Below, piece by piece: positions 4,054 to 64,000 of a stretch of 64,000 nt of DNA. The translations under genes and the position numbers were made by a program. The number at the start of each line of letters is the position of its first letter. The stretch's first letter is position 1. The notes under the pieces were generated by a model. That model was not told the origin of the DNA and made no database searches. It saw only the letters and a program-made list of their open reading frames with translations. This DNA comes from an uncultured Actinomycetes bacterium (GTDB taxonomy: Bacteria > Actinomycetota > Thermoleophilia > Gaiellales > JAICJC01): NCBI GenBank assembly GCA_963703275.1, contig OY969804.1, positions 3,692,392 to 3,756,391 on the forward strand, in the 5' to 3' direction.

Positions 4054-5302
4054 TGTCGACCCGCAGGTCGGCGAACTGCTTGACCGGCGCACGCCGCCGG
4101 TGAAGGTTGAGCCGCGATGGGACGATGTTCTGCGCCGAGCCGAACTCGAGGCGGGGGCAGAGCGCCGGCCGATGCTGCGTCTGCCGCGCCGGCGGTGGCT
4201 CCTCCTCGCCGCTGTGCTGGCCGTACCGGTGGGGATCGCCGCAGCTCAGGCGCATCGCGTGTTCGTCCACTATCTCTCCGGTGGCGCGTCCACGAAGCAG
4301 CGCGACCAGATCCGGTCATCCGCCCATGCCGGCCATTATTTCAATTTGACTCACGGGCACATCCGGGCCGATCTTCACCGAGCTCGACGGTTGGTCTCCG
4401 TCTCGCTCGGTGGCCATCACTACGTGTTCCTCATGGCGCCGCTCACACATGGCAGCGGCGGCTGCTTCTTCGAGATCGTCGATGGGCGTCAAATTGTTGA
4501 TTCAGAGTGTGGCTATGACCCGAAGGCGCGCCATCCCGTTGTCTCGGGTCGCCGCGTCGTGGGCGCCGGAACCGCGCTCGGCGCCCAGGTGTTTCAGGTT
4601 GGCGCGAAGCCGGTGTGGGTCGTCATCGGGGTCATGCCCGCCGCCCGCGAGGTGTCCTCGGTGCGAGTGCGGTTCCAGGATGGAACCAGCGCCCGCGCGC
4701 CCACGAACGGCCCCTTCTTCAGCTATGTGGTCAGCGGCGCACACTCGCGGGCGAATCGCCGGCCGACCGCCCTCGTCGGCCTGACAGACGGCGGCAAGGT
4801 CGGCGCCACCCAACTGCTTGACCCACAGACCTTCAACGCCGCGGCGACCTATCCCTTACACCCCCTGAATACCCGCCGGAGAGCCGTCCTCTACCTGATC
4901 CTCCGCGCGAGGCGGAGTCTCCCGGCGCGTGGGCTGCATGCCGAAGCCCGCGTCTCGACGACCCCGGGAAAGGTGGCGCGAATGTTCGGAGGAAGCGCCC
5001 GAATGTACCCACCCCATCCCGTGGTGGTCGTGCTCCGAGGGCCGTTCACGATCTCCGCCATCCGCCGCACCTGTTCGTCGACGCCGCGGGTGTGCCCAGT
5101 TCCCAAAGGCCGGTGGGCGTACTTCGCGTATCTCATCAACCCCGACGAGTACCGGTACAACACGCTCCCCGGCAAGGCCATCGTCTGGCTTCGGAAAGCA
5201 CCGGTCGGCGCGCCCTACCCCGATCTGTCTCGGCTCGGGCACGTCTTCCACGACCGCCGAGTCCTCACCGTTCGAGCCAAGCGGGTACAACCGCCGGCGT
5301 GA
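4046..5302 (+). CDS. single-pass membrane protein coupled to the ECF sigma (possible anti-sigma/partner); function unknown
   Basis: ATG overlaps the sigma stop. About 55-aa cytoplasmic head, one TM (WLLLAAVLAVPVGIAAA), and a large external part. Confidence 0.6.
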   Translation: MPDVDPQVGELLDRRTPPVKVEPRWDDVLRRAELEAGAERRPMLRLPRRRWLLLAAVLAVPVGIAAAQAHRVFVHYLSGGASTKQRDQIRSSAHAGHYFNLTHGHIRADLHRARRLVSVSLGGHHYVFLMAPLTHGSGGCFFEIVDGRQIVDSECGYDPKARHPVVSGRRVVGAGTALGAQVFQVGAKPVWVVIGVMPAAREVSSVRVRFQDGTSARAPTNGPFFSYVVSGAHSRANRRPTALVGLTDGGKVGATQLLDPQTFNAAATYPLHPLNTRRRAVLYLILRARRSLPARGLHAEARVSTTPGKVARMFGGSARMYPPHPVVVVLRGPFTISAIRRTCSSTPRVCPVPKGRWAYFAYLINPDEYRYNTLPGKAIVWLRKAPVGAPYPDLSRLGHVFHDRRVLTVRAKRVQPPA

Positions 5303-5371
5303 CGTTTGGAGCTCGAGGTAGGCGCTTTGAGGTCTACAGTGACCAGGACCCGCGAGGGACTCGCCGCCGCC

Positions 5372-5875
5372 ATGACCGACATCCGAACATCGCGCCTCGA
5401 GCTGCATGCGATCGATGTCGCAGAGGCAGAGCGAATCGTCGCTCGGAGTCCCGGACCAGCCGATAGCTGGGCCGGCGACTACCCCTTCGAGGGCGATGTT
5501 GGCGCGGTCGGGGGCTTCCTTCGCGCCACCGCCGCGCAGGGAGACCAGCGGCCGTTCGGCTACTACCGCATCACCCGCCTGGCCGACGGGCAGGCCATCG
5601 GTGGGCTCGGCTTCAAGGGCCGGCCGGATGGGGGCTGCGCCGAGATCGGTTACGGCCTGGCTCCCTCGGCCCGCGGACATAGGTATGCCGCGGAGGCGGT
5701 CATCGCCCTGCTGTCCGTGGCCGCCGACCACGGGCTCTCCAGGGTGATCGCCGACACGACTCTCGACAATATCGCCTCCCAGCGCACCCTCGTCCGAGCC
5801 GGATTCCGCCTCGTGCGCACCGACGCTGAGCTCCACCATTACGAGGTGCTCCTGAACGAGGACGCCGCCACGTAG
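5372..5875 (+). CDS. GNAT family N-acetyltransferase (RimJ/RimL-like)
   Basis: Pattern TSRLELHAI...IGYGLAPSARGHRYAAEAV...NIASQRTLVRAGF. Internal ATG chosen as start. Confidence 0.8.
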   Translation: MTDIRTSRLELHAIDVAEAERIVARSPGPADSWAGDYPFEGDVGAVGGFLRATAAQGDQRPFGYYRITRLADGQAIGGLGFKGRPDGGCAEIGYGLAPSARGHRYAAEAVIALLSVAADHGLSRVIADTTLDNIASQRTLVRAGFRLVRTDAELHHYEVLLNEDAAT

Positions 5876-5922
5876 CCGGCGAGCGGGGGCCAGGGCAGTT
5901 CGCGTAGGCTGCTTCGGAGCCG

Positions 5923-6984
5923 ATGGCGCACGAACCGCTGCACCCCGAAACGATCGCCGTCATCGCCGGGCGTCCTGCTCGAGCACCGGGCGCGCCGCTG
6001 AACGCGCCGATCGTGCCGGCCTCGACCTACCACCAGGGCGGTGACCTGGTATACGGCCGCGAAGGCAACCCTGGCTGGGCGGCATTCGAGGAGGCCCTCG
6101 GCGCGCTCGAGCACGGCAGCTGCGTCGCGTTCGCCTCCGGGCTTGCAGGCAGCAACGCGATCTTCGACGAGCTGGCCTCCGGCATGCGCCTCGTGGCGCA
6201 GCGCGCGCCGTACTTCGGCGTGGCCGAGCAGCTCCGCGAACGAGCCGGCCGCGGCCAGATCGAGCTCGAGACGTTGCTCGAGATGACGCCTGCGGCCCTC
6301 GCGGCCACCGTCGCCGGTGCCGGGCTCGTCTGGATCGAGTCGCCGACGAATCCGATGCTGGACGTCGTCGACCTTCCCGCCGTGATTGGCATCGCCCACG
6401 CCGCGGGCGCCCTCGTCGTCGTCGACAACACCTTCGCGACGCCGCTCGGGCAGACGCCACTGTCGCTGGGCGCCGACCTCGTCCTCCACTCGGCCACGAA
6501 GCTGATCGGCGGCCACTCGGATCTGCTCCTCGGTGCCGTTGTGGTGCGCGACGCAGCCCTCGCGGCGCGCCTGCGCGAACGCCGCTCGACGACGGGCGCA
6601 ACACCGGGTGCGCTCGAGGCGTACCTCGCACTTCGCGGTCTCCGCACGCTGCCCACCCGCCTGAGCCGCGCCCAGGCCAGCGCCCGCCACCTTGCCGGCG
6701 AGCTCGCAGCGCATTCACGTGTGGCACGCGTGCGCTATCCCGGCAGCGGCACAATGGTCTCGTTCGAAACCGCGGGCACGGCCGAGGATGCGGAAGCCGT
6801 CTGTGACGCGTGCCGGCTGATCGTCCACGCCACCAGCCTGGGCGGCGTCGAGAGCAGCCTCGAACGCCGCGCCCGCTACCCCTCCGAACGCGACGCCGGC
6901 ACACCCCCGACACTGATCCGGCTCAGCGTCGGGCTCGAGCACCCCGACGACCTGTGGCGCGACCTCGCACGCGCCCTCGGGTAG
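5923..6984 (+). CDS. PLP-dependent Cys/Met metabolism enzyme (cystathionine gamma-synthase/lyase family)
   Basis: 353 aa. PLP-lysine context SATKLIGGHSD and family-typical VDNTFATP. Confidence 0.85.
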   Translation: MAHEPLHPETIAVIAGRPARAPGAPLNAPIVPASTYHQGGDLVYGREGNPGWAAFEEALGALEHGSCVAFASGLAGSNAIFDELASGMRLVAQRAPYFGVAEQLRERAGRGQIELETLLEMTPAALAATVAGAGLVWIESPTNPMLDVVDLPAVIGIAHAAGALVVVDNTFATPLGQTPLSLGADLVLHSATKLIGGHSDLLLGAVVVRDAALAARLRERRSTTGATPGALEAYLALRGLRTLPTRLSRAQASARHLAGELAAHSRVARVRYPGSGTMVSFETAGTAEDAEAVCDACRLIVHATSLGGVESSLERRARYPSERDAGTPPTLIRLSVGLEHPDDLWRDLARALG

Positions 6985-47085: not shown

Positions 47086-47097
47086 ATATCTGGCCGT

Positions 47098-47124
47098 GAA
47101 TAACGGGGCCTGGCCCCATTATTC
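47098..47124 (+). terminator. hairpin GAATAACGGGGCC-T-GGCCCCATTATTC after the phosphoesterase gene
   Basis: 13-bp stem with one mismatch, 13 nt after the stop, T-rich 3' side. Confidence 0.45.
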
Positions 47125-47161
47125 AAGAGACGATGGTCTCAATCGTCTCGACCCGGCGCCG

Positions 47162-49219
47162 ATGACGACGAGTAGTGCTGTGAGTTCATCGCCGCCACCG
47201 GATGCTGCAAATTCGCCGACGAGCATTGCGGCGCCTGGAACGCTGCGCCGGCTCCTCGGGCGCATGAGCCGCGGGTCGCGGAACGAGGCCCGGCTCGCGC
47301 GCATCCTCGACCTGTTCGAGGAGCACGTGTACGCCGGCGAGATCACGCCCGACGGCCACTACGTCCATCACGCGTCCGCGGCCACCTACGAGAGCCTCAT
47401 CGGCGGCCCGGTGCCGGAGGGCGTCGAGGTCGGCGAGTTCTGGGAGTCGCGCATCGTCGCCGAGGACTTCCCCCAGTACGAGGCGTTCAACCAGCGGCTT
47501 CTGCGTGGTCAGGACGCCGAGGTCACCTACCGCCTGCTGGGTCTCGACGGGATCACGCGGGTGGCGCGGGATCGCGCCCGCCCGCGCCGCAAGGGTGACG
47601 GCCGCATCCTCGTCGACGGCATCATCTCCGACGTCACCGCCCGCGAGGAGGCGGCCGCCCGCCTGGCCGAGGCCGGCGACCGGTTCACGAGCCTGCTCGA
47701 CGTCGTCGGCGCGCACGTCTATCTCGCCCACGCCCTCCCCGACGGCACGCTGCAGGAGCTGTTCCAGGGCCCCGGCGGCGACCGCCTGCTGGGCGGCGCC
47801 GAGCCGGACTCGGCGATGGAGAACTGGGACGCCGCCGTGCATCCCGAGGATCAGGCCGCCTACAACGCGTTCAACCAGGCGCTCGGCCGGGGCGAGGACG
47901 CGGAGGTGATGTACCGCCTGATCGGCGCCGACGGGATCACCCGCTGGGTGCACGACCGCGGCGCCACGCGCAGCCGCCCGGACGGCACCTATGAGGTGAG
48001 CGGCATCGTCTCGGACGTGACCGAGCGGCGCCGGCTCGAGGACGATCTGCGCCGGAGCATGAGCGAGATGCAGAAGGCCCACCGCGAGCTCGAGCGCGCC
48101 CGCGCCGACGCCGAGCTGCGCGCGGGCACCGACGAGCTCACGGGCACCTTCAACCGGCGCCACTTCGTCCAGATCGCCACCGAGGCGCTCGAGGCCGATC
48201 CCCGCCGGTGCGGCCTGCTCCTGCTCGACGCCGACCACTTCAAGCACATCAACGATGCGTATGGGCACGCGGTCGGAGACGCGGTCCTGATCGACCTTGC
48301 GCAGCGGCTGCGATCGGGTCTCGAGCCCGGAGACTGCCTGGCCCGCTGGGGCGGCGAGGAGTTCGCCGTGCTCCTGCGCGGTGTCGCGTCGGCCCGCGGC
48401 CTGGCCCAGCGGGCCGAGCGCCTGCGGCGAGCGGTCAGCAAGGCGCCGATCGTGCACGAGGCCGTTCGCCTCGACCTGACGATCTCGGTCGGCGCCGCCC
48501 TCTCGGCCCATGACGGCACGAGTCTCGACGCGCTCGTGGACAAGGCCGACGGCTGCCTCTACGCCGCCAAGTACCAGGGCCGAAACCGCGTCTCGCTCCT
48601 TCCCGGAGGTTTCGACGCCGACTCGTCGACCAGCGAGCCCGAGGTGGTGGGGATGGCGCGCGCGCTCGCGTACGCGAGCAGCCTGCGCGAGGGCATTCCC
48701 GAGGAGCACGCCGAAACGGTCGCCCGGCTCGCGGTCATGACCGCCGAGCAGCTCGACCTGCCTGTCGGGGTCGTCCTGCGCTGCCGGCTCGCCGGGTGGC
48801 TGCACGACGTCGGCAAGCTCGCGATCCCCGAGCAGATCCTGACCAAGCCGGGGCCGCTCGACGAGAACGAATGGACGATCATGCGCACGCACCCGGCCGC
48901 CGGGGCCGCGATCGTCCGCCGCGTGGCGGCCCTGCGGGAGGCCGCCGCCGCGGTGCGCCACCACCACGAGCGCTTCGCGGGCCATGGCTACCCCGACGGC
49001 CTGGCCGGCACCGCGATCCCCATCGAGGCGCGCATCGTGGCCGCGGCAGATGCGTACGCCGCGATGACCGCGACCCGGCCGTACTCGGTCGCCCGGTCGC
49101 CGGAGGCGGCCGCGGAGGAGCTCGCGCGGAGCGCGGGCTCGCACCTGGATCCCGCCGTGGTCGACGCGCTCCTCACCGTGCTCGGCTTCGGCGACCAGGT
49201 CGTGCGCAAGGCGGCCTAG
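47162..49219 (+). CDS. PAS-PAS-GGDEF-HD-GYP c-di-GMP signalling protein
   Basis: GGEEF motif (RWGGEEFAVLL). HD-GYP motifs (HDVGKLAIP, HHERFAGHGYP). Start moved to the ATG (MTTSS) downstream of the terminator hairpin. Confidence 0.88.
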   Translation: MTTSSAVSSSPPPDAANSPTSIAAPGTLRRLLGRMSRGSRNEARLARILDLFEEHVYAGEITPDGHYVHHASAATYESLIGGPVPEGVEVGEFWESRIVAEDFPQYEAFNQRLLRGQDAEVTYRLLGLDGITRVARDRARPRRKGDGRILVDGIISDVTAREEAAARLAEAGDRFTSLLDVVGAHVYLAHALPDGTLQELFQGPGGDRLLGGAEPDSAMENWDAAVHPEDQAAYNAFNQALGRGEDAEVMYRLIGADGITRWVHDRGATRSRPDGTYEVSGIVSDVTERRRLEDDLRRSMSEMQKAHRELERARADAELRAGTDELTGTFNRRHFVQIATEALEADPRRCGLLLLDADHFKHINDAYGHAVGDAVLIDLAQRLRSGLEPGDCLARWGGEEFAVLLRGVASARGLAQRAERLRRAVSKAPIVHEAVRLDLTISVGAALSAHDGTSLDALVDKADGCLYAAKYQGRNRVSLLPGGFDADSSTSEPEVVGMARALAYASSLREGIPEEHAETVARLAVMTAEQLDLPVGVVLRCRLAGWLHDVGKLAIPEQILTKPGPLDENEWTIMRTHPAAGAAIVRRVAALREAAAAVRHHHERFAGHGYPDGLAGTAIPIEARIVAAADAYAAMTATRPYSVARSPEAAAEELARSAGSHLDPAVVDALLTVLGFGDQVVRKAA

Positions 49220-53593: not shown

Positions 53594-54355
53594 ATGGAGC
53601 GGCTCAACGGCAAGGCGGCGCTGATCACCGGCGGCGCGTCGGGGATCGGCCGGGCGACCGCGCAGCTCTTCCTCGAGGAGGGCGCGCGGGTGACGATCGC
53701 CGACCTCAACGGGCCGCTGCTCGAGCAGACCGCCGCCGAGCTCGCAGCGCTGGGCCCGGTGCACACGGTTGTCGGCGACGTCTCGAGCGTTCCCGACGGC
53801 GAGCGGATGGTGCGCGAGGCGGCGGCCGCGCACGGTGCGCTCGACATCGTGGTCTGCGCGGCCGGGATCACCAGCCGCTCCCGCATCGCCGTCCTCGACG
53901 AGGACGAGTTCGACCGCATCATCGCCGTGAACCTGAAGGGCATGTACACGGTCATCCACGCCGCCGTTCCCCGGCTCAAGGAGCAGGGCGGCGGGGTGAT
54001 CGTGACCGTCGGCTCGGAGATGGGGTTCGTCGCCGACCCGAACGCGCCGGCCTACAACGCGAGCAAGGGCGGCGTGATCATGTTCACGAAGTCGATCGCG
54101 GTCGACCTCATCGCCGACAACATCCGCGTGAACTGCCTCTGCCCCGGCATCACCCAGACGCCGCTGCTCGACGAGGAGGTGGCCACCAGCCCCGACCCCG
54201 AGGCCACCCGGGCCGAGTTCGCGCAGTGGGCGCCCATCGGCCGCGCGGCCGACCCCATGGAACAGGCGCGGGGCATCCTCTTTCTGGCCAGCGAGGAGAG
54301 CTCGTTCGCCGTCGGCACCGCCCTGCTCCTCGACGGCGGCTTCACGTCTCGTTAG
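53594..54355 (+). CDS. SDR-family oxidoreductase
   Basis: TGGASGIG, NASK (YxxxK region YNASKGG), PGITQTP. Confidence 0.9.
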   Translation: MERLNGKAALITGGASGIGRATAQLFLEEGARVTIADLNGPLLEQTAAELAALGPVHTVVGDVSSVPDGERMVREAAAAHGALDIVVCAAGITSRSRIAVLDEDEFDRIIAVNLKGMYTVIHAAVPRLKEQGGGVIVTVGSEMGFVADPNAPAYNASKGGVIMFTKSIAVDLIADNIRVNCLCPGITQTPLLDEEVATSPDPEATRAEFAQWAPIGRAADPMEQARGILFLASEESSFAVGTALLLDGGFTSR

Positions 54356-56325
54356 ATCTCGACGTAGGCGCCGACCTCGAACACGCGGTCGGGCGGGATG
54401 TGGTACGACCGGGCGATCGGGGCGGAATTCTGGTGGAGGAGCGCGAACAGGCGCTTGCGCCACCCGGCCAGCTTGCTGTGCCCGGTCGGCAGGATGGTGA
54501 CGTGGTCGACGTAGTAGGACGTGTGCTTCAGGTCGATGTCGAGCCCCTGCCGGCGCGCGAGCCGCAGCGCCTGGACGACGTCGGGCTCGTCCTGGTAGCC
54601 GTAGTTGGCGGTGATCGCGATGAATCCGAGCCGCAGCTTCTGGATCGTGACGCGATCGGCGTCGTCGACGTGCGGCACCCCGAGCGTGTGCAGCTTGACC
54701 ATGATGACGCGCTCGTGGACGATGCCGTTGTGCTCGGCGTTGTTGAGCAGCGCGGTCGGCACCGTCTCGAGTGAGGTGGTGAGGAAGACGGCCGTGCCGG
54801 GGATGCGGTTGGGCGGCTCGTCGATCATGTGGTTGATGTAGCGCCGCAGCGAGACGCGCCCCTCGCGCATCGCCTTGGCGAGGATCAGACGGCCGCGGTG
54901 CCACGTGGTGAGGATGGTGAAGAAGATCGCGCCGACGATGAGCGGGAACCAGCCGCCGCTCAGGAGCTTGGTGAGGTTCGCGGCGAAGAAGGTGAGCTCC
55001 ACGGTGATGAAGAGGGCGGCGCCGGGAATGACCATCCAGAGCGGCTTTCGCCAGACGGTCCGGAACACCACGAAGGCCAGGAACGTGTTCGTTGCGAAGA
55101 TGGCGCTCAGGGCGATGCCGTAGGCGTTGGCGAGGCCGGTGGGTGAGCGGAAGGTGAGCACGAGGACGACGACCGCCGCGAGCAGGAACCAGTTCACGAG
55201 CGGGATGTAGATCTGGCCGATGATGCGCTTCGACGTGTGCCGGATCGTCATCCGCGGCAGGAAGCCGAGCTGGATCACCTGCTGCGTCACCGAGAACGCG
55301 CCCGAGATCACCGCCTGCGAGGCGATCACCGTTGCGACGGTGGCGAGCACGACCATCGCCTTCTGCCCGCTCTGGCCGCCGGGGACGAGCAGGAAGAACG
55401 GGTTCACGATGTCCCGCGGGTGGGCGAGGATCAGCGCCCCCTGGCCCATGTAGTTCAGGATGAGCGCCGGGAAGCACAGGAAGAGCCAGGCGCGCGTGAT
55501 CGCCTTGCGGCCGAAATGGCCCATGTCGGCATAGATCGCCTCGGCGCCCGTCACCGCCAGGAAGACGGAGCCGAGCGCGAGGAAGCCGAGCGTCGGGTCG
55601 TCGGCGAGGAACGCGCCGGCGTAGGTTGGCGAGAGCGCCCGGAGGATGTCGGGATTGGTCGCGACCTCGCGCAGCCCGAGCGCGCCGATCACCACGAACC
55701 AGATCACCATGACGGGGCCGAAGAGCCCGCCGACCGCGCCGGTGCCGAATCGCTGCAGGGCGAACAGGCCGATCAGGATCACCAGCGAGAACGGGACGAT
55801 CTCGGTCGCGAGCGCCGGTGAGGCCACCTTGAGTCCCGACACCGCCGACACCACCGAGATCGCCGGTGTCAGCATTCCGTCGCCATAGAAGAGCGAGGCG
55901 CCGAGCACGCCGACCATCACGAGGCCGGTCTTGCGGCGCGACTTGACCACCCGCTCGATCAGTGCGACGAGCGCCATGATCCCGCCCTCGCCGTGGTTGT
56001 CCACGCGCAGGATCAGGAGCACGTACTTGAGCGTGACGATCAGCGCGAGCGCCCAGAAGATCAGGGACAGCGCGCCGTACACGCGCACCGGGGAGGGGGC
56101 CATCGGATGGTCGCCGCTGAAGATCAGCTGGACGGTGTAGAGGGGGCTCGTCCCGATGTCGCCGTAGACGACGCCGAGCGCGCCCAGCGACAGGGCCAGC
56201 GCACCGAAGCGCGATGACCGGTGCCTGTCGCCGTGGCTGTGCGCGGCCGGCGCCGGCTTGGCCCGGCGAGGAGCCGGGGCCGCCGTGTCGGGGAGCGCCT
56301 GGGTTGGGATGTCGGTCGTGCTCAT
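54352..56325 (-). CDS. kup: KUP/HAK/KT potassium transporter
   Basis: GVVYGDIGTSPLY, NHGEGGIMAL, FYGDGMLTPAISV. 657 aa from the ATG that overlaps the upstream stop. Confidence 0.93.
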   Translation of the reverse strand: MSTTDIPTQALPDTAAPAPRRAKPAPAAHSHGDRHRSSRFGALALSLGALGVVYGDIGTSPLYTVQLIFSGDHPMAPSPVRVYGALSLIFWALALIVTLKYVLLILRVDNHGEGGIMALVALIERVVKSRRKTGLVMVGVLGASLFYGDGMLTPAISVVSAVSGLKVASPALATEIVPFSLVILIGLFALQRFGTGAVGGLFGPVMVIWFVVIGALGLREVATNPDILRALSPTYAGAFLADDPTLGFLALGSVFLAVTGAEAIYADMGHFGRKAITRAWLFLCFPALILNYMGQGALILAHPRDIVNPFFLLVPGGQSGQKAMVVLATVATVIASQAVISGAFSVTQQVIQLGFLPRMTIRHTSKRIIGQIYIPLVNWFLLAAVVVLVLTFRSPTGLANAYGIALSAIFATNTFLAFVVFRTVWRKPLWMVIPGAALFITVELTFFAANLTKLLSGGWFPLIVGAIFFTILTTWHRGRLILAKAMREGRVSLRRYINHMIDEPPNRIPGTAVFLTTSLETVPTALLNNAEHNGIVHERVIMVKLHTLGVPHVDDADRVTIQKLRLGFIAITANYGYQDEPDVVQALRLARRQGLDIDLKHTSYYVDHVTILPTGHSKLAGWRKRLFALLHQNSAPIARSYHIPPDRVFEVGAYVEI

Positions 56326-56784
56326 GGCCGCTGCGTGATCGCCTGTGGTTGCGAGGCCGGCGCCGGCGCCGTCCCGCGTCGGGTGGGCGTCGAGCGGGCC
56401 GGGATGACGACGACCTCCGGGGCGACGCCGCGGGCGGCGCGGCGGATGCTCCAGCCGGCCTTGCCGACGAGGATCAGCGTGTCGACCGGCCAGACGGCCT
56501 GCGAGCAGCGCTGCGACGCTCCGGCAGGGCACGATCTCGACCCGGCCCGGCGGGGTGAGCGATCCCACGAGCGCCTCGGTGGCATCGCGCAGCCTGTCGA
56601 GACGCGCGGCCAGGCGAGGCGGCCAGGCGGTGATCGGCAGCGTCGGCGGGAGCACCGCGGGGATCTGGACGTTCACGACCATCACGGCGCCCCTCGTCCG
56701 CTCCCTCGCGCGGTGGACGGCATCGGCCAGCAGTTGCGGCTGGACGTGCGAGTCGGTGGCGACGATCAGGACGTGATGCCTCAT
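56322..56784 (-). pseudogene. small Usp-like protein interrupted by a 1-nt frameshift
   Basis: Frame A (MRHHVLIVATDSHV...CRSVAALLA) and frame B (QAVWPVDTLILVGKAGW...APEVVVIPA..stop) are both GC3-rich. ATGA couplings are present at both ends. Frame A otherwise reads through into kup. Confidence 0.5.
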
Positions 56785-58745
56785 GCCCGCGCCCGTTCCG
56801 GCTGGATGATCATGACCCGCTGCTTGGCCTCGGCCACGATGCGGCGCACGACGTGGTCGTAGGCAACCCGGCGGAAGGTAGTCCGATCGAGGCCGGTCGC
56901 CCGCAGCAGGATCACCTGGGAGTCGCGGCGGGTGGCCTCGGCCAGGATCGAGTCGGCGGGATCGCGGGTGCGCAGATGCGTCGTGTGGACGCGGATCCCG
57001 TACTGCTCGCCGATGGTGCGCGCCCGGTTGGCGAGGCGCTCGACATCGGCGTCGAGCCCGTCGATCTCGATGTCCATCTCCTCCGAGAGCGGGATCTGCG
57101 TGAACGCGAGTAGGACGAGGGAGGCGCGCCGCTCTGCCGCCAGGCGGGCTGCGACCTCGACCACGTCGGCCGGGATGTCGGGCTGGTCGGTGTTGACCGG
57201 GATCAGGATCGTCTGGAACTCGACCGCGATTCCGGGCCCGGACTGCTGGCTGAAGTCGCGCCGTGTGCGCTCGGTCAGGCTCAGGCCCCGGTGCCGGCGA
57301 TACGCCGCGTAGCCGGCGAAGCCGATCAGGATCCACGCCGATCCCAGGTAGCGGGGGCCGCCCTCGAGCACGACGACCGCGACCCACGCCGCGGCGGTCG
57401 CGGCGCCTCCGAGGATCGCGAGCACGGGCACCCTGCGCCCGTCCACCGGAATGTTCACCGGCACCTCGAATGGGCGGTAGCGGAGCGGATCGCGCCAGCG
57501 CATCGCGATGATCGAGACCTGAACGCTCGTGAACGCGAGCAGGGCCCCGTACGCGTAGGTGCCGGCCAGGAAGCTCAGTCCACCGGCATAGGCCTGTCCG
57601 ATCACGAGCGCCGAGGCCGCGACGGCGGAGCACGCCACCGCGACGTAGGCGGTGTCGTAGGCCGGATGCAGGTCGGCGACGGGGGCCGGGAGCTGATGAT
57701 GCTCGGTGAGCCAGTAGCTCAGTCGCGACAGACCGGTCATCGCGGAGTGGGCCGTCACGAGCAGCATGATCGCCACGAGCAGCCCGACGAAGTATTCGAG
57801 CCCGGTCGAGAAGACGTGCAGCGGGAACCGGGCGACGATCCCGAGCACCGGATAGGCCACATAGCCGTGCGGCGGGCCCTGGGCCAGGCGGGTCGTGTAC
57901 GCGCCGGAGGCACTCCTCGTGACCGGCATCGCCATCATCGCGACCAGCGAGAGGGCGACGTAGAGCGCCACCACCGATCCGGTGACCCCCCGCGCCGCGC
58001 GCGGCAGGTCGCGATCGGGATCGCGCGCCTCGCCGGCCATCTCTCCGATCGCCTCGACGCCGGTGTAGGCGACCATCGCCACCGCGCAGGCCAGGATCAG
58101 CTGCTCGAGCGACGGCGCCGTTCCGAAGTGCACGTTCTGCCGGAGCTGCTGGGGATCGAAGATGAAGACCGCTCCGACGATCACCAGCACGACCTGGGTG
58201 ATCAGGTTGACGATCCCGAGGAACACGGCCACGCCGGCCGACGGCACCAGCCCGCGCACGTTGACCGCCGCCACGACGCCGATCACGACGAGGCCGCCGA
58301 CCACGTCCCAGGGCCGGGTCGCAAGCGGCGTCCAGAATACGCTCAGGTACTGCGGGACGAACAGGGCGGCCAGTGCCGTGATCGCGACGAGCGCGAGGCA
58401 CATCGCCCACCCGGTGACAAAGCTCACCGCCTCGTTGAAGCCGTTGCGCGCGAACGCCGCAGAACCGCCCGCCTCGGGGAACATCGAGACCCCCTCGGCA
58501 TAGCATGCCGCGACGGCCGCGAAGACCAGCCCGGCGACGAGAAGAGCGACAGGCGTGAGCCCCAGACCGTGGATCGCAACCAACCCCAGCGCCAGATAGA
58601 TCGACGAGCCCATCCGCGGATGGGCCGCCGCGTACAGGCCGCTGCCGCCGAGGCTCGCGCGCCGGGTGCCAGCGTGCCTGCGGACGACCGGCGAGCGGCG
58701 GGCCTGCGACGGGCCGTTTGATGGCGAGAGAACACCCATACTCAC
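56781..58745 (-). CDS. APC-family amino-acid/cation permease with C-terminal universal-stress-protein domain
   Basis: About 12 TM segments, followed by ILIPVNTD...SQVILLRATG...RIVAEAKQRVMII. Confidence 0.85.
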   Translation of the reverse strand: MSMGVLSPSNGPSQARRSPVVRRHAGTRRASLGGSGLYAAAHPRMGSSIYLALGLVAIHGLGLTPVALLVAGLVFAAVAACYAEGVSMFPEAGGSAAFARNGFNEAVSFVTGWAMCLALVAITALAALFVPQYLSVFWTPLATRPWDVVGGLVVIGVVAAVNVRGLVPSAGVAVFLGIVNLITQVVLVIVGAVFIFDPQQLRQNVHFGTAPSLEQLILACAVAMVAYTGVEAIGEMAGEARDPDRDLPRAARGVTGSVVALYVALSLVAMMAMPVTRSASGAYTTRLAQGPPHGYVAYPVLGIVARFPLHVFSTGLEYFVGLLVAIMLLVTAHSAMTGLSRLSYWLTEHHQLPAPVADLHPAYDTAYVAVACSAVAASALVIGQAYAGGLSFLAGTYAYGALLAFTSVQVSIIAMRWRDPLRYRPFEVPVNIPVDGRRVPVLAILGGAATAAAWVAVVVLEGGPRYLGSAWILIGFAGYAAYRRHRGLSLTERTRRDFSQQSGPGIAVEFQTILIPVNTDQPDIPADVVEVAARLAAERRASLVLLAFTQIPLSEEMDIEIDGLDADVERLANRARTIGEQYGIRVHTTHLRTRDPADSILAEATRRDSQVILLRATGLDRTTFRRVAYDHVVRRIVAEAKQRVMIIQPERARA

Positions 58746-58814
58746 ACGGTGCCACGCCGGCCGTCACGCGCGTGTCACGATCACGCCCGGACTCGTCCCA
58801 ATCACATCACATGG

Positions 58815-58836
58815 CCATCACGGTCCCATCACGGTC
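58815..58836. repeat. tandem direct repeat 2 x CCATCACGGTC
   Basis: Read directly. Located in the divergent region between the APC-Usp permease and trkA, amid further ATCAC/GTCACG repeats. Confidence 0.6.
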
Positions 58837-58848
58837 CAGGCGGCTCGC

Positions 58849-59511
58849 GTGTACATCCTGATCGCAGGCGGCGGCAAGGTCGGGTCGAATCTGGCCGCAA
58901 CCCTGCTGAAGCTCGGGCACGAGGTCACGCTGGTCGACAACAACCGCGGCCGGTATCCGGCGCTCGAGCAGCGGTTCGGCAGCCTCGTGCATCTTGGCGA
59001 CGTCACCGAGGTCGCGGTGCTCGAGCGGGCGGGCGTCGAGCGCGCGGATCTGGTGATCGCGGTGACGGGCGACGACGAGGACAACCTCGTCGCGTGTCAG
59101 CTCGCGCGCGACAAGTACGGGGCCCCCAAGGTCATCGCCCGCGTCAATGACCCCCGCAACCAGTCCCACTTCGAGATGCTCGACGTCCACCTGACCGTCT
59201 CCACGACGAAGACGATCCTCACGCTGATCGAGCACGAGCTCCCCCAGCACGAGCTGCTCACGCTCGTCGACCTGCGCCGCGAGGGCCTCGAGGTCGTCGA
59301 GCTGGTGATCGCCGCCGGCTCACCCGCGGACGGCCGTGCTGTGCGCGAGCTCAACCTGCCGGATGAAGCCCGGCTGATCTCGATCAGCCGGGACGGCATC
59401 CCCGAGATCGCCGTCGGCGAGTCGGAGCTCCGCCCCGGCGACAGCGTCCTCGCGATCCTGGCGCCGAGCGCCAAGGAGCAGCTGCGGAGGGCGCTGCTCG
59501 CCGGGGCGTAG
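58849..59511 (+). CDS. trkA: TrkA-family K+ transport regulatory protein (TrkA-N + TrkA-C)
   Basis: GTG start. ILIAGGGKVGSNLA Rossmann fold. C-terminal TrkA-C pattern. Confidence 0.85.
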   Translation: MYILIAGGGKVGSNLAATLLKLGHEVTLVDNNRGRYPALEQRFGSLVHLGDVTEVAVLERAGVERADLVIAVTGDDEDNLVACQLARDKYGAPKVIARVNDPRNQSHFEMLDVHLTVSTTKTILTLIEHELPQHELLTLVDLRREGLEVVELVIAAGSPADGRAVRELNLPDEARLISISRDGIPEIAVGESELRPGDSVLAILAPSAKEQLRRALLAGA

Positions 59512-59526: not shown

Positions 59527-61214
59527 CTACTTCACCCAGGCCTGATCGATGAGGAAGTTGCCGTCGACCGAGTCGGCGAACTCGACGTGCCCGACGCGCT
59601 TGGAAGTGAACGTCACCTTCTTGGGGACGAACAGCGAGATCTGCGGGGCCTGATTCGTGGTGGCACGGTCGATCGCCGTCCAGAGCTTGTTGGCAGCGGC
59701 GCGATCCGTCTCCTCGACGGTGAGCGCGTGGGCGGTCATTGCCTGAATCGCCGGGTCGCAGAACTCCGAGAGGTTCGGGCTCGTGTCGCTCTTGGGATGG
59801 AACCCGGCGCACCCGACCTCAAGGGTGAAGAAGTCGGCGGGGTCGGGATAGTCGGGATACCAGTAGCTCAGACTGATCTGGGGCTTGAACGTCGAGTTCT
59901 GCTGGATGGAGTACTCGACCGAGGCCGCGAGCGGCTTCAGACGCGCCTTGTATCCGAGGCTGTCGAGCAACTGCACGAAGTAGACGCCGATGTTCTTGCT
60001 GGTCGAGTCGGTGGCCGTGATGACGGCGACGGAGTCGCCCTTCGTGCCAGACTCGTTCATGAGCTGCTGGGCCTTCGTTCGGTCGGGCGCCGACCACGTG
60101 GTGCCCGGATTCTTCGTGTAGGGGCAGTACGGCTCGTAGGCGGGGAAGTTCGGCGGCAGGATCTGACACGACGGCTCGGCGACGCCGGGGCCGCCCCAGA
60201 GTTTGATGATTGCTCCGCGGTCGGTTGCGTAGTTGACGGCCAGCCGGGCCTTCAGATTGTTGAACGGAGGCGTGCGCGTGTCGAGCGCCATGTAGTACAG
60301 CTGCGGCACCGGGTTCACGTGCACCTGCTTGGGGTACTTGGTGGCGATCTCGTTCAGGCGATCGCTCGCCGGCTGGTCGTACATCCAGTCGGCCTCGCCC
60401 TGCTCGACCTCGGTCGTCTCCTCCTCGATCGGCAGTCCGATCTTCATGACGATCTCGTTCGGGTACCCAGCGGGCTGGGCGAGCGCCGACCACTGGTGGA
60501 ACTTGGGGTTGCGGACAAGGGTCATCTGCTGGTTCGGGTCGTAGCTCTTGATCATGTACGGACCCGAGGCGGGCACCGGTTGGGACACGGACTCCTTGAT
60601 GGGTGTGCCGGCGGGCAGGACATCCGTAAGCGGCAGGGCCAGCTGCTCGGGCAGGAGCGGGTCGGGGGAGGTGAGGTGGATCGTCACCGTCCCGGCGCCG
60701 TTGTCGGCCGCGACGCCCTGGGCCAGATTGCACGTCTTTGGTGACGTGGCGCAGGCGGACGCGCCAACGATCTGCGAAAGGAAGCTCGTTCCGGGCCCGT
60801 GGATCTCGAATTCCCGCTCGATCGAGGCCGTGACGTCCGTGGGTGTGAGGAGGCCCCGTTGGAGTAGTGGATGCCGGGTCGGATATGGAACAGCCAGGTC
60901 TTCCCGCCGTTCGTGGGGACCGGGATGGCGGTCGCCAGGTCGGGGACGAGCTGCGATCCGGCTGTCCCGTTGACGCGTTTCCAGGCCGTCAGGCCGTCGT
61001 TCGTCATGACGAGGATCTGCCAGTTCTGGTCGTAGTCGACCTGCGGATCGATCGACGTCCCGACTCCGCTCCACACCATGGTGAACGTGCCGCCGCGATG
61101 CGAGGCGCTGCCGGATGGGGACGACGACGAAGATGCGCCGCTGCCTCCGCACCCGGCCGCTGCGGTGACCACGACTGCCATGACCAGCGCGGTGAGGGTG
61201 GCGGAGTGCTTCAT
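59527..61214 (-). pseudogene. family-5 (peptide/nickel) ABC substrate-binding lipoprotein, frameshifted in a G-run
   Basis: Lipobox VTAAAGC. N-terminal part ...FHIRPGIHYSNG lies in one frame and LLTPTDVTASIERE...to the stop in another. The junction is at AACGGGGCC (~60861..60869). Confidence 0.8.
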
Positions 61215-63082
61215 GGGTGGCTCCTTCCAGAGACCGGATGACGTACATGGGGCGCCGAGAGTGCATGTGCCAGCAGGTCGACCCGGCGCTGGGCCTCCTG
61301 CTCCTGGCGGGCCTGGGAATCGCGCAGGGATCGCTCGACCCATGATCCAAACGGCCGCGCGCCGGGCTCGCCCCGGAGCGATCTGATCGCCGCGGTGAGA
61401 TCGGGGCTGCGGGTGAGGTGGCTGGCGGCGGCCCACGAGTCGCGCCGCGGCCGGCGGGCGCGGGCGATCCGGCGCGCCGCGGGCGAGAGGTGGTCGACGA
61501 CGTGGTTGTCGCCAACCTTCATCGCCGCACGGGCTGCTCCGCTGCGATCACCGGCCTGGAGGCACCCCACGGCGGTCTCGAGATTGCGGGCGTCCGCTGC
61601 GGCCTGCGCGTGCAGGTAGCCCGTCTCGCCGGCGGCGTCCACCCCAAGGCCGAGACGGGTCAGGCGGGTAAAGGCCGCCCGCGAACCGGCCAGTTCATAC
61701 GCGGTGGCGGCGCGGACCAGAGGGGCGCGGTCGACGAGCGCGTTGGCCGCGCGCACGACGTGGCGGGCGCGGGCGGGGTGGTCGAGCAGGCGATCCGCGG
61801 TGGCGTCCGCGGCAACCAGCACCTGCGTATAGAGCTTGGTCAGGTCGGCCAGGTGGTCTGCGTCGACCATCGCCGGGACGTCGTTGGTGGTGTGATAGTC
61901 GCTGCGCGCGAAGCGGGTATGCCAGTTGTAGACGCTCAGGCTGGGCACCCCCCGAAGCTGGAACTGCCACGCCTCGGTACCGGTGACCGGCGGTCCGTAG
62001 ATCCAACCCTGCGGGAACCGCCCAGCGCGGGCGGCGGGACGGAAGATCCGATTTGCAAACCGGCGCAGCTCCGGCGGACCCTCGACGCGAAGGGGGAGGC
62101 CGAGGTGTCCCGACGCCTCAACATTGAGGTAGAACGGCACCTCGCCGCCCCACCGCGGGTGGGTCACCGAGACCTGGTGCCACGCGCCCGCGCACCAGGG
62201 ACGGTCGTCGTCGAGATGCCCGTACTCCTCGGCGGTGTGCGACGTGAAGACAACGGGGCCGTTACCGCGCCAACCCGTCTCGACGAGCGCCCGCGCGATG
62301 CCGAGCATCGCCGCGACGCCGCTGGCGTTGTCGAACGCTCCCCGGAACCAGCCGTCGTGGTGCGCCCCCACGACCATCGGCGCACCCCGTCGGCGCCCGG
62401 GGAGAACGCCGATCACGTTGCGCCCCGAGGCGCCTCGCTCGATGTGCGCCTTCAGGGTCACCCGCGCCGTCAGGTGACCAGAGCGGCATCGCTCAGAGAG
62501 CTCCCGGGCCGCCTCGCGTCGCACGGTGACGAGCGGCGGCGCCTGATCGTGCCATCCCCCAAGGCCGCCTCCAAGGGCGCCGTCACCCTGGAATCTCGGG
62601 CCGCCGTCGAGGCAGCCGAGGATGATCGCCGAGGCGCCGCGCAGGCCCAGTTCGAGGCCGATGCTGCCGATTCGCACCGAGGAGCTGCGCCAGTCGAGCA
62701 GCGCGATCTTGCCTCGAACGTCGAGGCGATCGAGCCTTCTCAGGCGGCCGTCACCGACAAACACGACCTCGCCATCCACCCCGGACTCGCCCGTCGGCGG
62801 GACGCCTCCCAGCGATGCCGCCTCGATCTCACGGCCGTCAGCGAGCGTCACGCTCGCGCCGAGAAAGCGCCAGGCGTCGACCGGCACGAGCTCGATCCCC
62901 ACGTCGCAGAGGCCGATGGCCTCCATCTCGCTTGCAACGAGGTCTGCGACCCGCTCGTCCTCGGGGGTCCCGGTGACCCGGAAACCGAGTGGGTGTGAGC
63001 CAACCGCCGCGATCGACTGGATCACCCGCGCGAGCGTCGCCGGGTCGACGAAAAGGCTATTGACAGACGGGGTTGGTGTCAC
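61211..63082 (-). CDS. M28-family peptidase (PA domain + aminopeptidase domain) with long C-terminal extension
   Basis: NVIGVLPG...VVGAHHDGW..GAFDNASGVA...TAEEYG. ATGA-coupled to the SBP gene. Confidence 0.78.
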   Translation of the reverse strand: MTPTPSVNSLFVDPATLARVIQSIAAVGSHPLGFRVTGTPEDERVADLVASEMEAIGLCDVGIELVPVDAWRFLGASVTLADGREIEAASLGGVPPTGESGVDGEVVFVGDGRLRRLDRLDVRGKIALLDWRSSSVRIGSIGLELGLRGASAIILGCLDGGPRFQGDGALGGGLGGWHDQAPPLVTVRREAARELSERCRSGHLTARVTLKAHIERGASGRNVIGVLPGRRRGAPMVVGAHHDGWFRGAFDNASGVAAMLGIARALVETGWRGNGPVVFTSHTAEEYGHLDDDRPWCAGAWHQVSVTHPRWGGEVPFYLNVEASGHLGLPLRVEGPPELRRFANRIFRPAARAGRFPQGWIYGPPVTGTEAWQFQLRGVPSLSVYNWHTRFARSDYHTTNDVPAMVDADHLADLTKLYTQVLVAADATADRLLDHPARARHVVRAANALVDRAPLVRAATAYELAGSRAAFTRLTRLGLGVDAAGETGYLHAQAAADARNLETAVGCLQAGDRSGAARAAMKVGDNHVVDHLSPAARRIARARRPRRDSWAAASHLTRSPDLTAAIRSLRGEPGARPFGSWVERSLRDSQARQEQEAQRRVDLLAHALSAPHVRHPVSGRSHP

Positions 63083-63123
63083 GGTAGGATGGTTGGGCCG
63101 ACTCTACCAACCGGTCGTCTTCT

Positions 63124-64000
63124 ATGTCAACGAACGTGAGCTCTCTGAACTCCCCCGATGATTTCGCAGGCGCTCGCCCGCTCGCACGACAGACGCTGGC
63201 GCGGCAGGTGGCGGATCAGCTCGTCGACCTGATCACCGCGGGCGACAGTGGAGGCGAGGTCACCCTGCCTCCGGAGCGGCGCCTGTGCGAGCAACTCGGG
63301 GTGGGTCGCAACAGTTTGCGAGAGGCCCTTTCGGCCCTTGACCGGCTCGGGATCATCGAGGCGCGGGGGCGAACACGGGTCGGCCTCCCGGACCGTGCCC
63401 GCGCCCACCGGATCGCAAGCGTTCCCTCCGTCGACCCCGATAGGGCGCGAACGAGGAGCGCTCCCGCAATTCCGCCGGCGCCGACCGTCGTGGGACTCTC
63501 ACGGACCGAAAAGCGGGTGGTGCGTGCAATCGCCGATGGCTCCGACGAGCTCGTCGAGCTCACCCGCACCCTCGTCGGCTACGACACGTGCACGCGAGAC
63601 GCCGGGGCGGAGTCGGGGCAGGACGCGGAACTTCAGGCGTACCTCGCGGACCGCCTGGTGCGGGCGGGGGCGGCCGTCGACGTTTTCGAGCCCGAGGCAA
63701 GCCTTGTCGCCGGCCACCCGATGATCCCGCGCGGATTCACGTTTCATGGCCGGCCGCATCTCGTCGCCCGGTTCCGCGGCAGCGGCGTGGGGCGCACGCT
63801 CCTCTTCAACGGTCACATCGACACGGTCGGAGTCGAGCCTCGCGACCGCTGGCAGCACGACCCGCTCGCCGCCGTGGTCATTGACGGAGCGATCCACGGT
63901 CGTGGCTCCTCGGACATGAAGGGCGGGGTGGCCTGCATGGTGTATGCGGCCGAGATGCTGTCCCGTGCCGGAGTCAAGCTGCCGGGCGACCTCATCGTGA
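63124..64000 (+). CDS. GntR-type wHTH fused in frame to an M20 (ArgE/DapE/CPG2-like) peptidase; 3'-partial
   Basis: Absent from the ORF track because it has no stop in the window. I translated frame 1 by hand. It gives LPPERRLCEQLGVGRNSLREALSALDRLGIIEARG, then LLFNGHIDTVGV...GRGSSDMKGG, with no stop codon between them. Confidence 0.7.
   Translation, partial: MSTNVSSLNSPDDFAGARPLARQTLARQVADQLVDLITAGDSGGEVTLPPERRLCEQLGVGRNSLREALSALDRLGIIEARGRTRVGLPDRARAHRIASVPSVDPDRARTRSAPAIPPAPTVVGLSRTEKRVVRAIADGSDELVELTRTLVGYDTCTRDAGAESGQDAELQAYLADRLVRAGAAVDVFEPEASLVAGHPMIPRGFTFHGRPHLVARFRGSGVGRTLLFNGHIDTVGVEPRDRWQHDPLAAVVIDGAIHGRGSSDMKGGVACMVYAAEMLSRAGVKLPGDLIV

Follow-up and report, generated by a model that had tools for sequence, protein, structure and literature searches.

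GntR regulators are classed by the C-terminal effector domain that accompanies their winged helix-turn-helix (wHTH), the recognised types being FCD/FadR_C, UTRA, aminotransferase, the short YtrA type and the AraR-type PBP, and to our knowledge an M20 hydrolase is not among them. In FadR-type regulators both dimerisation and the response to ligand depend on the FCD domain, and in MocR regulators it is established that the GntR wHTH is joined through a long linker to a dimeric enzyme fold, which serves as effector and oligomerisation module. Further examples in which an enzyme or enzyme fold and transcriptional control share one polypeptide are the trigger enzymes and enzyme-derived regulators PepA (at carAB), PutA, BirA and BzdR; the aminopeptidase PepA has been cited as a trigger enzyme (PMC2952853), and BzdR consists of a helix-turn-helix (HTH) and a shikimate-kinase-like domain (PMC3602430). 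The idea that regulators arise from enzymes gaining DNA-binding domains is widely held and rarely tested (PMC3602430). Described here is a gene in which a GntR wHTH is fused in frame to an M20 metallopeptidase of the ArgE/DapE type, found at the end of a stretch of 64,000 nucleotides (the window; contig OY969804.1, positions 3,692,392 to 3,756,391) from an uncultured bacterium of the Gaiellales.

An earlier note, made from the letters of the window alone, had read a GntR HTH in frame from an ATG at 63124 to the end of the window, followed by the N-terminal half of an M20/ArgE/DapE-type peptidase and lacking any FCD or UTRA domain, and each of these points is borne out. The frame from this ATG runs without a stop as far as base 64000, giving 292 codons and the first 877 bases of the gene, in DNA of 70.6% G+C; 12 codons upstream it is closed by an in-frame TAG at 63085-63087, and no other start codon (ATG, GTG or TTG) lies between that TAG and ATG 63124. 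Pfam places GntR (PF00392) at residues 25-84 (48.8 bits, cut-off 27; 5.7e-13) and Peptidase_M20 at residues 227-291 of the window product, a partial protein (54.5 bits, cut-off 24.6). The NCBIfam model PRK06837 ('ArgE/DapE family deacylase') matches residues 128-291, and because its position 7 falls at residue 128, the M20 part starts at about its natural N-terminus (residue ~122-125). No FCD, UTRA or other GntR effector domain was detected by Pfam in the window open reading frame (ORF) or in the full-length orthologue described below, and the only C-terminal domains found were Peptidase_M20 and M20_dimer. Because it carries no recognised effector domain, the fusion falls outside the usual division of GntR subfamilies; by descent, as judged from sequence, its N-terminal half is FadR-subfamily GntR and its C-terminal half ArgE/DapE-type M20.

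The in-frame fusion recurs in independent assemblies of a second lineage, once at full length. The protein P0117 (83% identity, called as only 357 residues) leads to a contig, L001, that has the synteny of the window and carries the genes for an SBP_bac_5 peptide-binding protein and an M28 peptidase in one direction and, divergently, GntR followed by M20. In L001 the GntR frame continues via the linker into the M20 N-terminus (...VGLSPAEKRVVQAVADGADELVELTR) and then breaks at one extra base, and gene callers split the fusion into calls of 153 and 357 residues. In all M20 homologues, and in the window, a single residue separates ELVELTR from LVG(F/Y)DT, as opposed to the 4 nucleotides found in L001; because the window spacing fits all M20 homologues, the extra base belongs to L001 (and to L089, below) and not to the window. 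A cluster look-up with the 153-residue ORF of L001 yielded P0278 on contig L088, from a different sample, where L088:1755-3425 is an uninterrupted fusion of 556 codons with Pfam matches to GntR (26-84, 47.8 bits), Peptidase_M20 (227-550, 106.7 bits) and M20_dimer (PF07687, 332-426, 28.9 bits). Precomputed and recomputed Pfam matches agree on this architecture, and the 794-residue gene call at this place is the 556-residue fusion plus a spurious upstream extension of 238 residues.

A fourth copy, L089, comes from a noisy assembly that has a number of additional indels. The window is 78-80% identical in nucleotides to L001, L088 and L089, which are 93-98% identical among themselves, and it matches L001 at ~80% over the gene and 83.5% over a 4.5-kb syntenic block; on these identities, two diverged lineages of uncultured soil actinobacteria carry the fusion, one represented by the window and the other by L001, L088 and L089. 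Independent assemblies from three samples and two lineages concur on the frame relation between HTH and M20. The additional G of L001 (at ~9849) and L089, which are 94.8% identical and come from the same sample (ERZ25039594), occupies alignment column 533, equivalent to 63569/63570 in the window and just past the ELVELTR codons; it is no simple homopolymer extension, and L088 and the window lack it. M20 downstream of this G is still strongly constrained: relative to L088, the L001 sequence past the frameshift has 7/6/60 substitutions by codon position over 408 codons and no indel, and the frameshift is for this reason either a consensus error, perhaps a systematic one in a strain mixture, or a very recent real event. 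The 153-residue call of L001 was considered as a stand-alone short GntR and rejected as the true product, given the intact L088, the additional G and the constrained M20 that follows. A 110-residue fragment from a read-level soil assembly (P0121; SRR5438874) is 78% identical to the HTH and connector of the window and ends in '...VDPARAF', with no FCD-opening motif; on this short sequence, it may represent a third FCD-less lineage.

The origin of the fusion can be read from L083, a contig of 2.07 Mb with the same synteny, in which the regulator and the enzyme are two genes: a GntR+FCD protein of 252 residues (5226-5984) and, after a gap of 16 bp and in another frame, an M20 protein of 426 residues that is 66% identical to that of the window, with the M28 and peptide-binding protein genes again divergent. 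In tblastn searches with the L083 proteins, GntR residues 18-96 were matched in the window and L001 at 56-61% identity, and residues 97-252, the FCD domain, had no counterpart in either. All the full-length proteins closest to the wHTH and connector (P0125, P0126, P0132, P0133 and the L083 GntR, 243-260 residues) bear FCD domains, in keeping with FadR-subfamily descent, and their alignment with the window takes in the wing and the connector ('RVG(L/I)P.RAR..RI...') and extends as far as the FCD-opening '(D/E)P(L/M/V)E(V/A)R'. In the window, similarity to them gives out at '...SVDP', the point at which helix 1 of the FCD starts; the connector, residues 85-104, is also present in P0121. These alignments show that one deletion took the spacer, the stop codon of the regulator and its FCD domain, joining regulator codon ~105 to the start of the enzyme, and the equal length of the junction in both lineages implies a single event that preceded their split.

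The earlier note had offered loss of the effector domain and intergenic region by deletion as an alternative to a fusion, and since L083 keeps full GntR+FCD and M20 apart in the same synteny, the window copy is indeed a deletion derivative. The note had also counted two separate genes in orthologous loci as a case against the fusion; such a locus exists, but it does not undo the fusion, which has been kept over a synonymous divergence (dS) of ~0.7 under purifying selection. In L083 the homology to other M20 N-termini (S..E..V pattern) does not end at the called GTG but continues past it in the 5' direction, through the GntR stop (5950-6003), and an AAGGAG followed by a CTG at ~5971 could mark the true M20 start. 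If M20 starts at this CTG, the two genes would overlap, and an in-frame fusion by a small deletion is therefore easy to imagine.

Selection on the two halves was gauged by the Nei-Gojobori ratio of nonsynonymous to synonymous divergence (dN/dS), with the window set against the intact L088 and also against L001. Relative to L088, dN/dS is 0.10 in the GntR part (residues 1-104; dS 0.70), 0.07 in the HTH by itself (residues 25-84; dS 0.60), 0.04 in the connector (residues 85-104; dS 0.56), 0.42 in the junction (residues 105-124; dS 1.10) and 0.16 in the M20 part (residues 125-292; dS 0.75). Relative to L001 it is 0.08 in the GntR part, 0.76 in the junction and 0.17 in the M20 part, and for the HTH the two comparisons span 0.06-0.07. 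Substitutions by codon position relative to L001 number 4/1/19 in the HTH, 0/0/8 in the connector, which is 100% identical in amino acids, 8/8/9 in the junction and 16/13/51 in M20. The junction, by its dN/dS of 0.42-0.76 and amino acid identity of 40-45%, is free to vary in sequence and shows no periodicity of third-position G+C; there is no net indel in it, and its length and frame have been kept over dS ~0.7. By these substitution patterns, both halves are under strong purifying selection in a single frame, and the fusion is maintained across two lineages. An HTH without its own stop codon can be translated only as a fusion to M20, and since this necessarily fused HTH is the most constrained part, the data strongly favour a fusion protein that is produced and put to use.

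For the enzyme half, the best 120 matches to the 292-residue product are stand-alone M20 proteins of 426-456 residues (~440), mostly from Gaiellales/Thermoleophilia-type metagenome-assembled genomes (MAGs); none has a GntR domain, and they cover 55-61% of the query, that is residues ~123-292. Identity of the M20 part to stand-alone orthologues in such MAGs is 66-69%. The motifs GHIDTV, GRGSSDMKGG, TDEES, PEPSG and GPGSIHQAH align with E. coli ArgE (7RSF) and with 3PFO, and the five ligands of the binuclear metal site (His, bridging Asp, Glu, Glu/Asp, His) are present together with the catalytic Glu, of which His231 (63814-63816) and Asp264 (63913-63915) lie inside the window and those beyond it were seen in L088 and L001. 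The full-length L088 protein shows the M20 layout, in which a dimerisation domain (PF07687) is inserted into the catalytic domain (PF01546). Of the solved structures, 3PFO ('putative acetylornithine deacetylase') is closest to the enzyme half, followed by ArgE, DapE, NaaA and CPG2, and Foldseek TM-scores normalised to the target are ~0.8 to 3PFO, DapE and ArgE. As judged from these residues, the M20 half is apparently catalytically active.

As to its substrate class, the partial 292-residue product matches best, in NCBIfam, two generic models ('ArgE/DapE family deacylase' and 'peptidase'), with all scores far below the cut-offs and no equivalog cut-off reached, and the neighbouring genes point to the uptake and breakdown of peptides instead of the biosynthesis of arginine or lysine. 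An AlphaFold2 model with a mean pLDDT (the per-residue confidence score) of 87.6 shows a wHTH (pLDDT 70-89), a disordered stretch at residues 95-118 (pLDDT <50) and an M20 fold; it was used instead of a model from the single sequence, which was poor (mean pLDDT 40). In other MAGs, the stand-alone orthologues of L084, L085 and L086 (62-67% identity; gene at ~6001 or 1840) sit next to an IclR-family regulator gene in divergent orientation and to genes of the MTTB and class-III aminotransferase families, so that the same M20 enzyme family is elsewhere wired to a different regulator family.

Compared with the described systems, the N-terminal half is closest to the FadR subfamily (L083 GntR of 252 residues; NanR and Rv0494 solved), with which it shares a homologous wHTH and connector; the PDB matches 9WFI and 6ON4 cover residues 14-89 of the fusion, and the L083 GntR gene occupies the same place, divergent from the operon of M28 and the peptide-binding protein, and has the same upstream DNA block. 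The fusion differs in that the all-helical FCD is wholly absent and a 430-residue M20 stands in its place. The likeness to MocR regulators is one of design only, as the enzyme of the fusion is a binuclear-metal M20 hydrolase as opposed to a pyridoxal-phosphate-dependent fold-type-I aminotransferase, the two folds being unrelated, and Pfam finds no aminotransferase match in the window or L088 that would place the fusion among the MocR proteins. It differs also in being recent and lineage-restricted, with an unfused ancestor still observable and catalytic residues intact. With stand-alone ArgE/DapE-type M20 enzymes (3PFO, ArgE 7RSF, DapE) the fusion shares the two-domain fold, metal ligands and dimerisation domain; it differs by an N-terminal extension of 124 residues with a DNA-binding domain, seen in none of the best 120 matches or PDB chains. 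PepA, PutA, BirA and BzdR resemble it in joining enzyme and control in one chain, but both its DNA-binding module (GntR wHTH) and its enzyme family (M20) are different, and here operon neighbours were fused by deletion and the states before and after both survive in related genomes.

The combination of a GntR wHTH with M20 appears to be new in the light of the searches described below, and the design, an enzyme-regulator fusion, is of a known kind. The fusion is real, selected and lineage-restricted, and its main appeal is the coexistence of ancestral and derived states: the gene pair of L083 and the fused gene of the window and L088 form a rare, natural before-and-after pair for testing the idea that regulators arise from enzymes gaining DNA-binding domains. 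Its value is more evolutionary and mechanistic than taxonomic. It can also serve to test if an active enzyme is able to take over directly from a dedicated sensor domain. Since the unfused ancestor still exists, the locus would, if the bolder reading given below is true, be a natural and experimentally tractable snapshot of how fusions of the MocR or BzdR kind are born.

What the protein does is probably best explained by a bifunctional repressor-enzyme of ~556 residues, in which a FadR-type wHTH is joined by a flexible tether to a complete, apparently competent M20 enzyme whose dimer would stand in for the FCD domain. The origin, the integrity of the fusion and the selection on both halves are established parts of this explanation; we infer the M20 dimer, operator binding, repression and ligand modulation. 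Solved ArgE/DapE-type M20 enzymes dimerise through the lid domain, and this lid (PF07687) is present in the L088 fusion, where it would supply the dimerisation that the wHTH lost with the FCD. Two tethered wHTHs would then bind a conserved block overlapping both divergent promoters, and binding would repress the fusion gene itself as well as the operon of the M28 peptidase and the peptide-binding protein. Substrate binding and the opening and closing of the M20 domains might modulate DNA binding, so that one protein would be both enzyme and sensor of a peptide or N-acyl-amino-acid utilisation locus, a trigger enzyme or a one-component regulator. In a bolder form, put forward tentatively, the protein would be the founding case of a GntR architecture in which an active M20 is enzyme, dimerisation module and ligand sensor at once and substrate-induced closure sets the repression of operon and fusion gene alike.

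The candidate operator lies in the 41-bp gap between the fusion gene and the divergent M28 gene. The block GGATGGTWGGGCC (GGATGGT(T/A)GGGCC) occurs once each, in the same place, in the window, L001, L083, L088 and L089, and in none of 85 other loci. A three-way alignment shows that GGTAGGATGGT(T/A)GGGCC...CTA(C/T)CA, also written CGGTAGGATGGT(T/A)GGGCC...CTA(C/T)CA, is conserved even in L083. Promoter-like sites face both ways (Table 1), and both -10 elements lie beside the block or overlap with it, the minus-strand TAGAGT sitting within it. The minus-strand site has 10/12 consensus matches, with 0 expected in shuffles; the plus-strand site was read by eye, as the consensus scan takes spacers of up to 18 nucleotides, and its TTGACA and TAGGAT are kept in L001 and L088, TAGGAT also in L083. 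The earlier note had pointed to GGTTGG-N10-CCAACC in this gap; the repeat is there, at 63091-63112, but what is conserved across loci is the promoter- or operator-like block that overlaps it. As a conserved operator the exact repeat was rejected, being window-specific and statistically weak (~1.8 matches per 64 kb expected by chance at up to 2 mismatches).

Several observations weigh against this explanation. DapE-type dimers place their catalytic domains, and so their N-termini, at opposite ends, and tethers of ~25-30 residues would have to let two wHTHs reach one operator, which by analogy with these dimers makes the reach questionable. Internal initiation is possible at GTG-GTG 63517-63522, which is conserved in L001 and matches the position where the L083 M20 is called to start, and the inverted repeat is perfect in the window only. 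The window itself displays just 292 codons of the fusion gene, and every sequence used derives from metagenome assemblies containing indels: the peptide-binding protein gene is frameshifted in the window (tblastn with the L083 protein returns two frames), and L001 and L089 have a common additional G inside the M20 part.

The rival that survives best, though unlikely, accepts the fused ORF as real and gives it no sensing role: either a free M20 would be made from an internal start (GTG 63517/63520 or 63490), or the protein would be a ligand-blind, constitutive autorepressor with the enzyme as a dimer scaffold. The conserved GTG-GTG at the place where the stand-alone M20 of L083 is called to begin, the stand-alone nature of all other homologues (~440 residues) and the unconstrained tether sequence speak for it. 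However, the internal start candidates have no recognisable Shine-Dalgarno sequence, tether length has been held over dS ~0.7, and the HTH, which is fused if translated, is the most constrained part (dN/dS 0.06-0.10). The separate peptidase start that the earlier note had allowed at GTG 63490 is weakened because this codon is not conserved (GTC in L001) and lacks a Shine-Dalgarno sequence, and as a conserved start it was discarded.

It is improbable that the M20 part has instead turned into a non-catalytic sensor, a pseudo-enzyme such as in MocR- or BzdR-type regulators. The aminotransferase fold carried by MocR regulators, which is established knowledge, is a precedent for this, and the shikimate-kinase-like domain of BzdR is another, having lost its activity on becoming regulatory (PMC3602430). 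Here, by contrast, all metal-binding and catalytic motifs are intact in L088, as are those within the window, 0.16 is a dN/dS commonly seen in functional enzymes, and no second M20 copy is seen in the syntenic loci. A decaying remnant or assembly artefact, in which the regulator was lost through the deletion and the apparent in-frame fusion arose by chance or from indel errors, is very improbable and already largely refuted, since against the two intact genes of L083, the frame switch in the window's peptide-binding protein gene, the frameshifts in M20, M28 and peptide-binding protein genes of L001 and L089 and a junction devoid of codon-position signature stand the agreement of the assemblies on the HTH-M20 frame, an L088 intact end to end, the one-residue ELVELTR-LVGYDT spacing of the window and the purifying selection on both halves, including the L001 M20 past its frameshift.

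The earlier note knew of no GntR-M20 fusion, and searches of proteins, genomes, metagenomes, the PDB and the literature agree with it. Beyond the copies described, no protein with both halves was found among 5.8 billion clustered proteins with the 292-residue query, or by exhaustive HMMER with a junction-spanning query among 1.84 billion representatives, where the 15 long multi-stretch matches scanned were all tandem GntR or GntR+FCD; clustering at 50% identity can, however, hide fusions under M20 representatives, as it did at 90% for P0117. GTDB representative genomes yielded stand-alone M20 genes only, JGI metagenome contigs no further members with single-sequence or alignment queries, the PDB no chain combining GntR and M20, and the literature searched no report of such a fusion; a word-indexed search with the GntR part returned 3 matches only, P0121 among them. 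Such fusions are probably under-counted, because gene callers split or mis-extend the gene and 90% clustering files it under an M20 representative. ORF calls at L088:1041-1754 and L001:8635-9402 run 238-256 codons upstream, antisense to M28, with no stop there, and the window differs from both in having the TAG at 63085-63087. Such over-extension, together with clustering at 90% under an M20 representative, hides the fusion from routine searches.

Table 1. Features of the fusion locus, with positions in the window and residues of the fusion product
Feature	Position	Strand	Basis
GntR-M20 fusion ORF, ends at window edge, 292 of ~556 codons	63124-64000	+	Open frame, unique start, Pfam, orthologue L088
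GntR winged helix-turn-helix, residues 25-84	63196-63375	+	PF00392; 92-93% amino acid identity to L001 and L088
Conserved connector RVGLPDRARAHRIASVPSVD, residues 85-104	63376-63435	+	Equals wing-to-FCD connector of FadR-type relatives
Junction tether of ~20 residues, residues 105-124	63436-63495	+	Variable sequence, constant length
M20 (ArgE/DapE-type) catalytic domain, N-terminal part, residues 125-292	63496-64000	+	PRK06837, stand-alone homologues
Conserved block GGTAGGATGGTTGGGCC...CTACCAACC, candidate operator, contains window-specific inverted repeat	63084-63112	.	Five-locus conservation
Promoter-like site for fusion gene: TTGACA (63060-63065), 19-nucleotide spacer, TAGGAT (63085-63090)	63060-63090	+	By eye
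Promoter-like site toward M28 operon: TTGACA (63130-63125), 18-nucleotide spacer, TAGAGT (63106-63101)	63101-63130	-	Consensus scan
M28 peptidase gene, divergent from fusion	61211-63082	-	PF04389, 1.2e-19; collinear in one frame with L083 M28
SBP_bac_5 peptide-binding protein gene, downstream of M28	59539-61223	-	PF00496, 5.3e-43; frame switch needed at ~60840-60854

Pfam matches on the window genes agree with the earlier reading of the fusion as divergent from an operon of an M28 peptidase and a peptide-binding protein, and the M28 gene is probably a regulated target. These two genes accompany the fusion or gene pair in all the loci, with the same synteny in L001, L083 and L089, and in L083 the context extends to an alpha/beta-hydrolase and an Opp-like ABC transporter. 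The frame switch in the peptide-binding protein gene of the window, which is either a long-read indel error or independent decay of the gene, adjoins a C4/G4 run, and the switch in L001 is a different one, ~58 nucleotides away. The listed ORF of 662 residues at 59527-61515 is a hybrid, in which the SBP_bac_5 match takes up just residues 224-569.

Further from the fusion, the ORF of 1471 residues at 54352-58767 on the minus strand is mostly a high-G+C open-frame artefact, with Kup-type K+ transporter domains only at residues 860-1471, and it adjoins a TrkA-N/TrkA-C gene at 58666-59511 on the plus strand. The Kup-type and TrkA genes have nothing to do with the peptidase locus and delimit it. At 47096-49219 on the plus strand lies a gene for a PAS-GGDEF-HD-GYP (HD_5) protein, with a putative role in cyclic di-GMP turnover.

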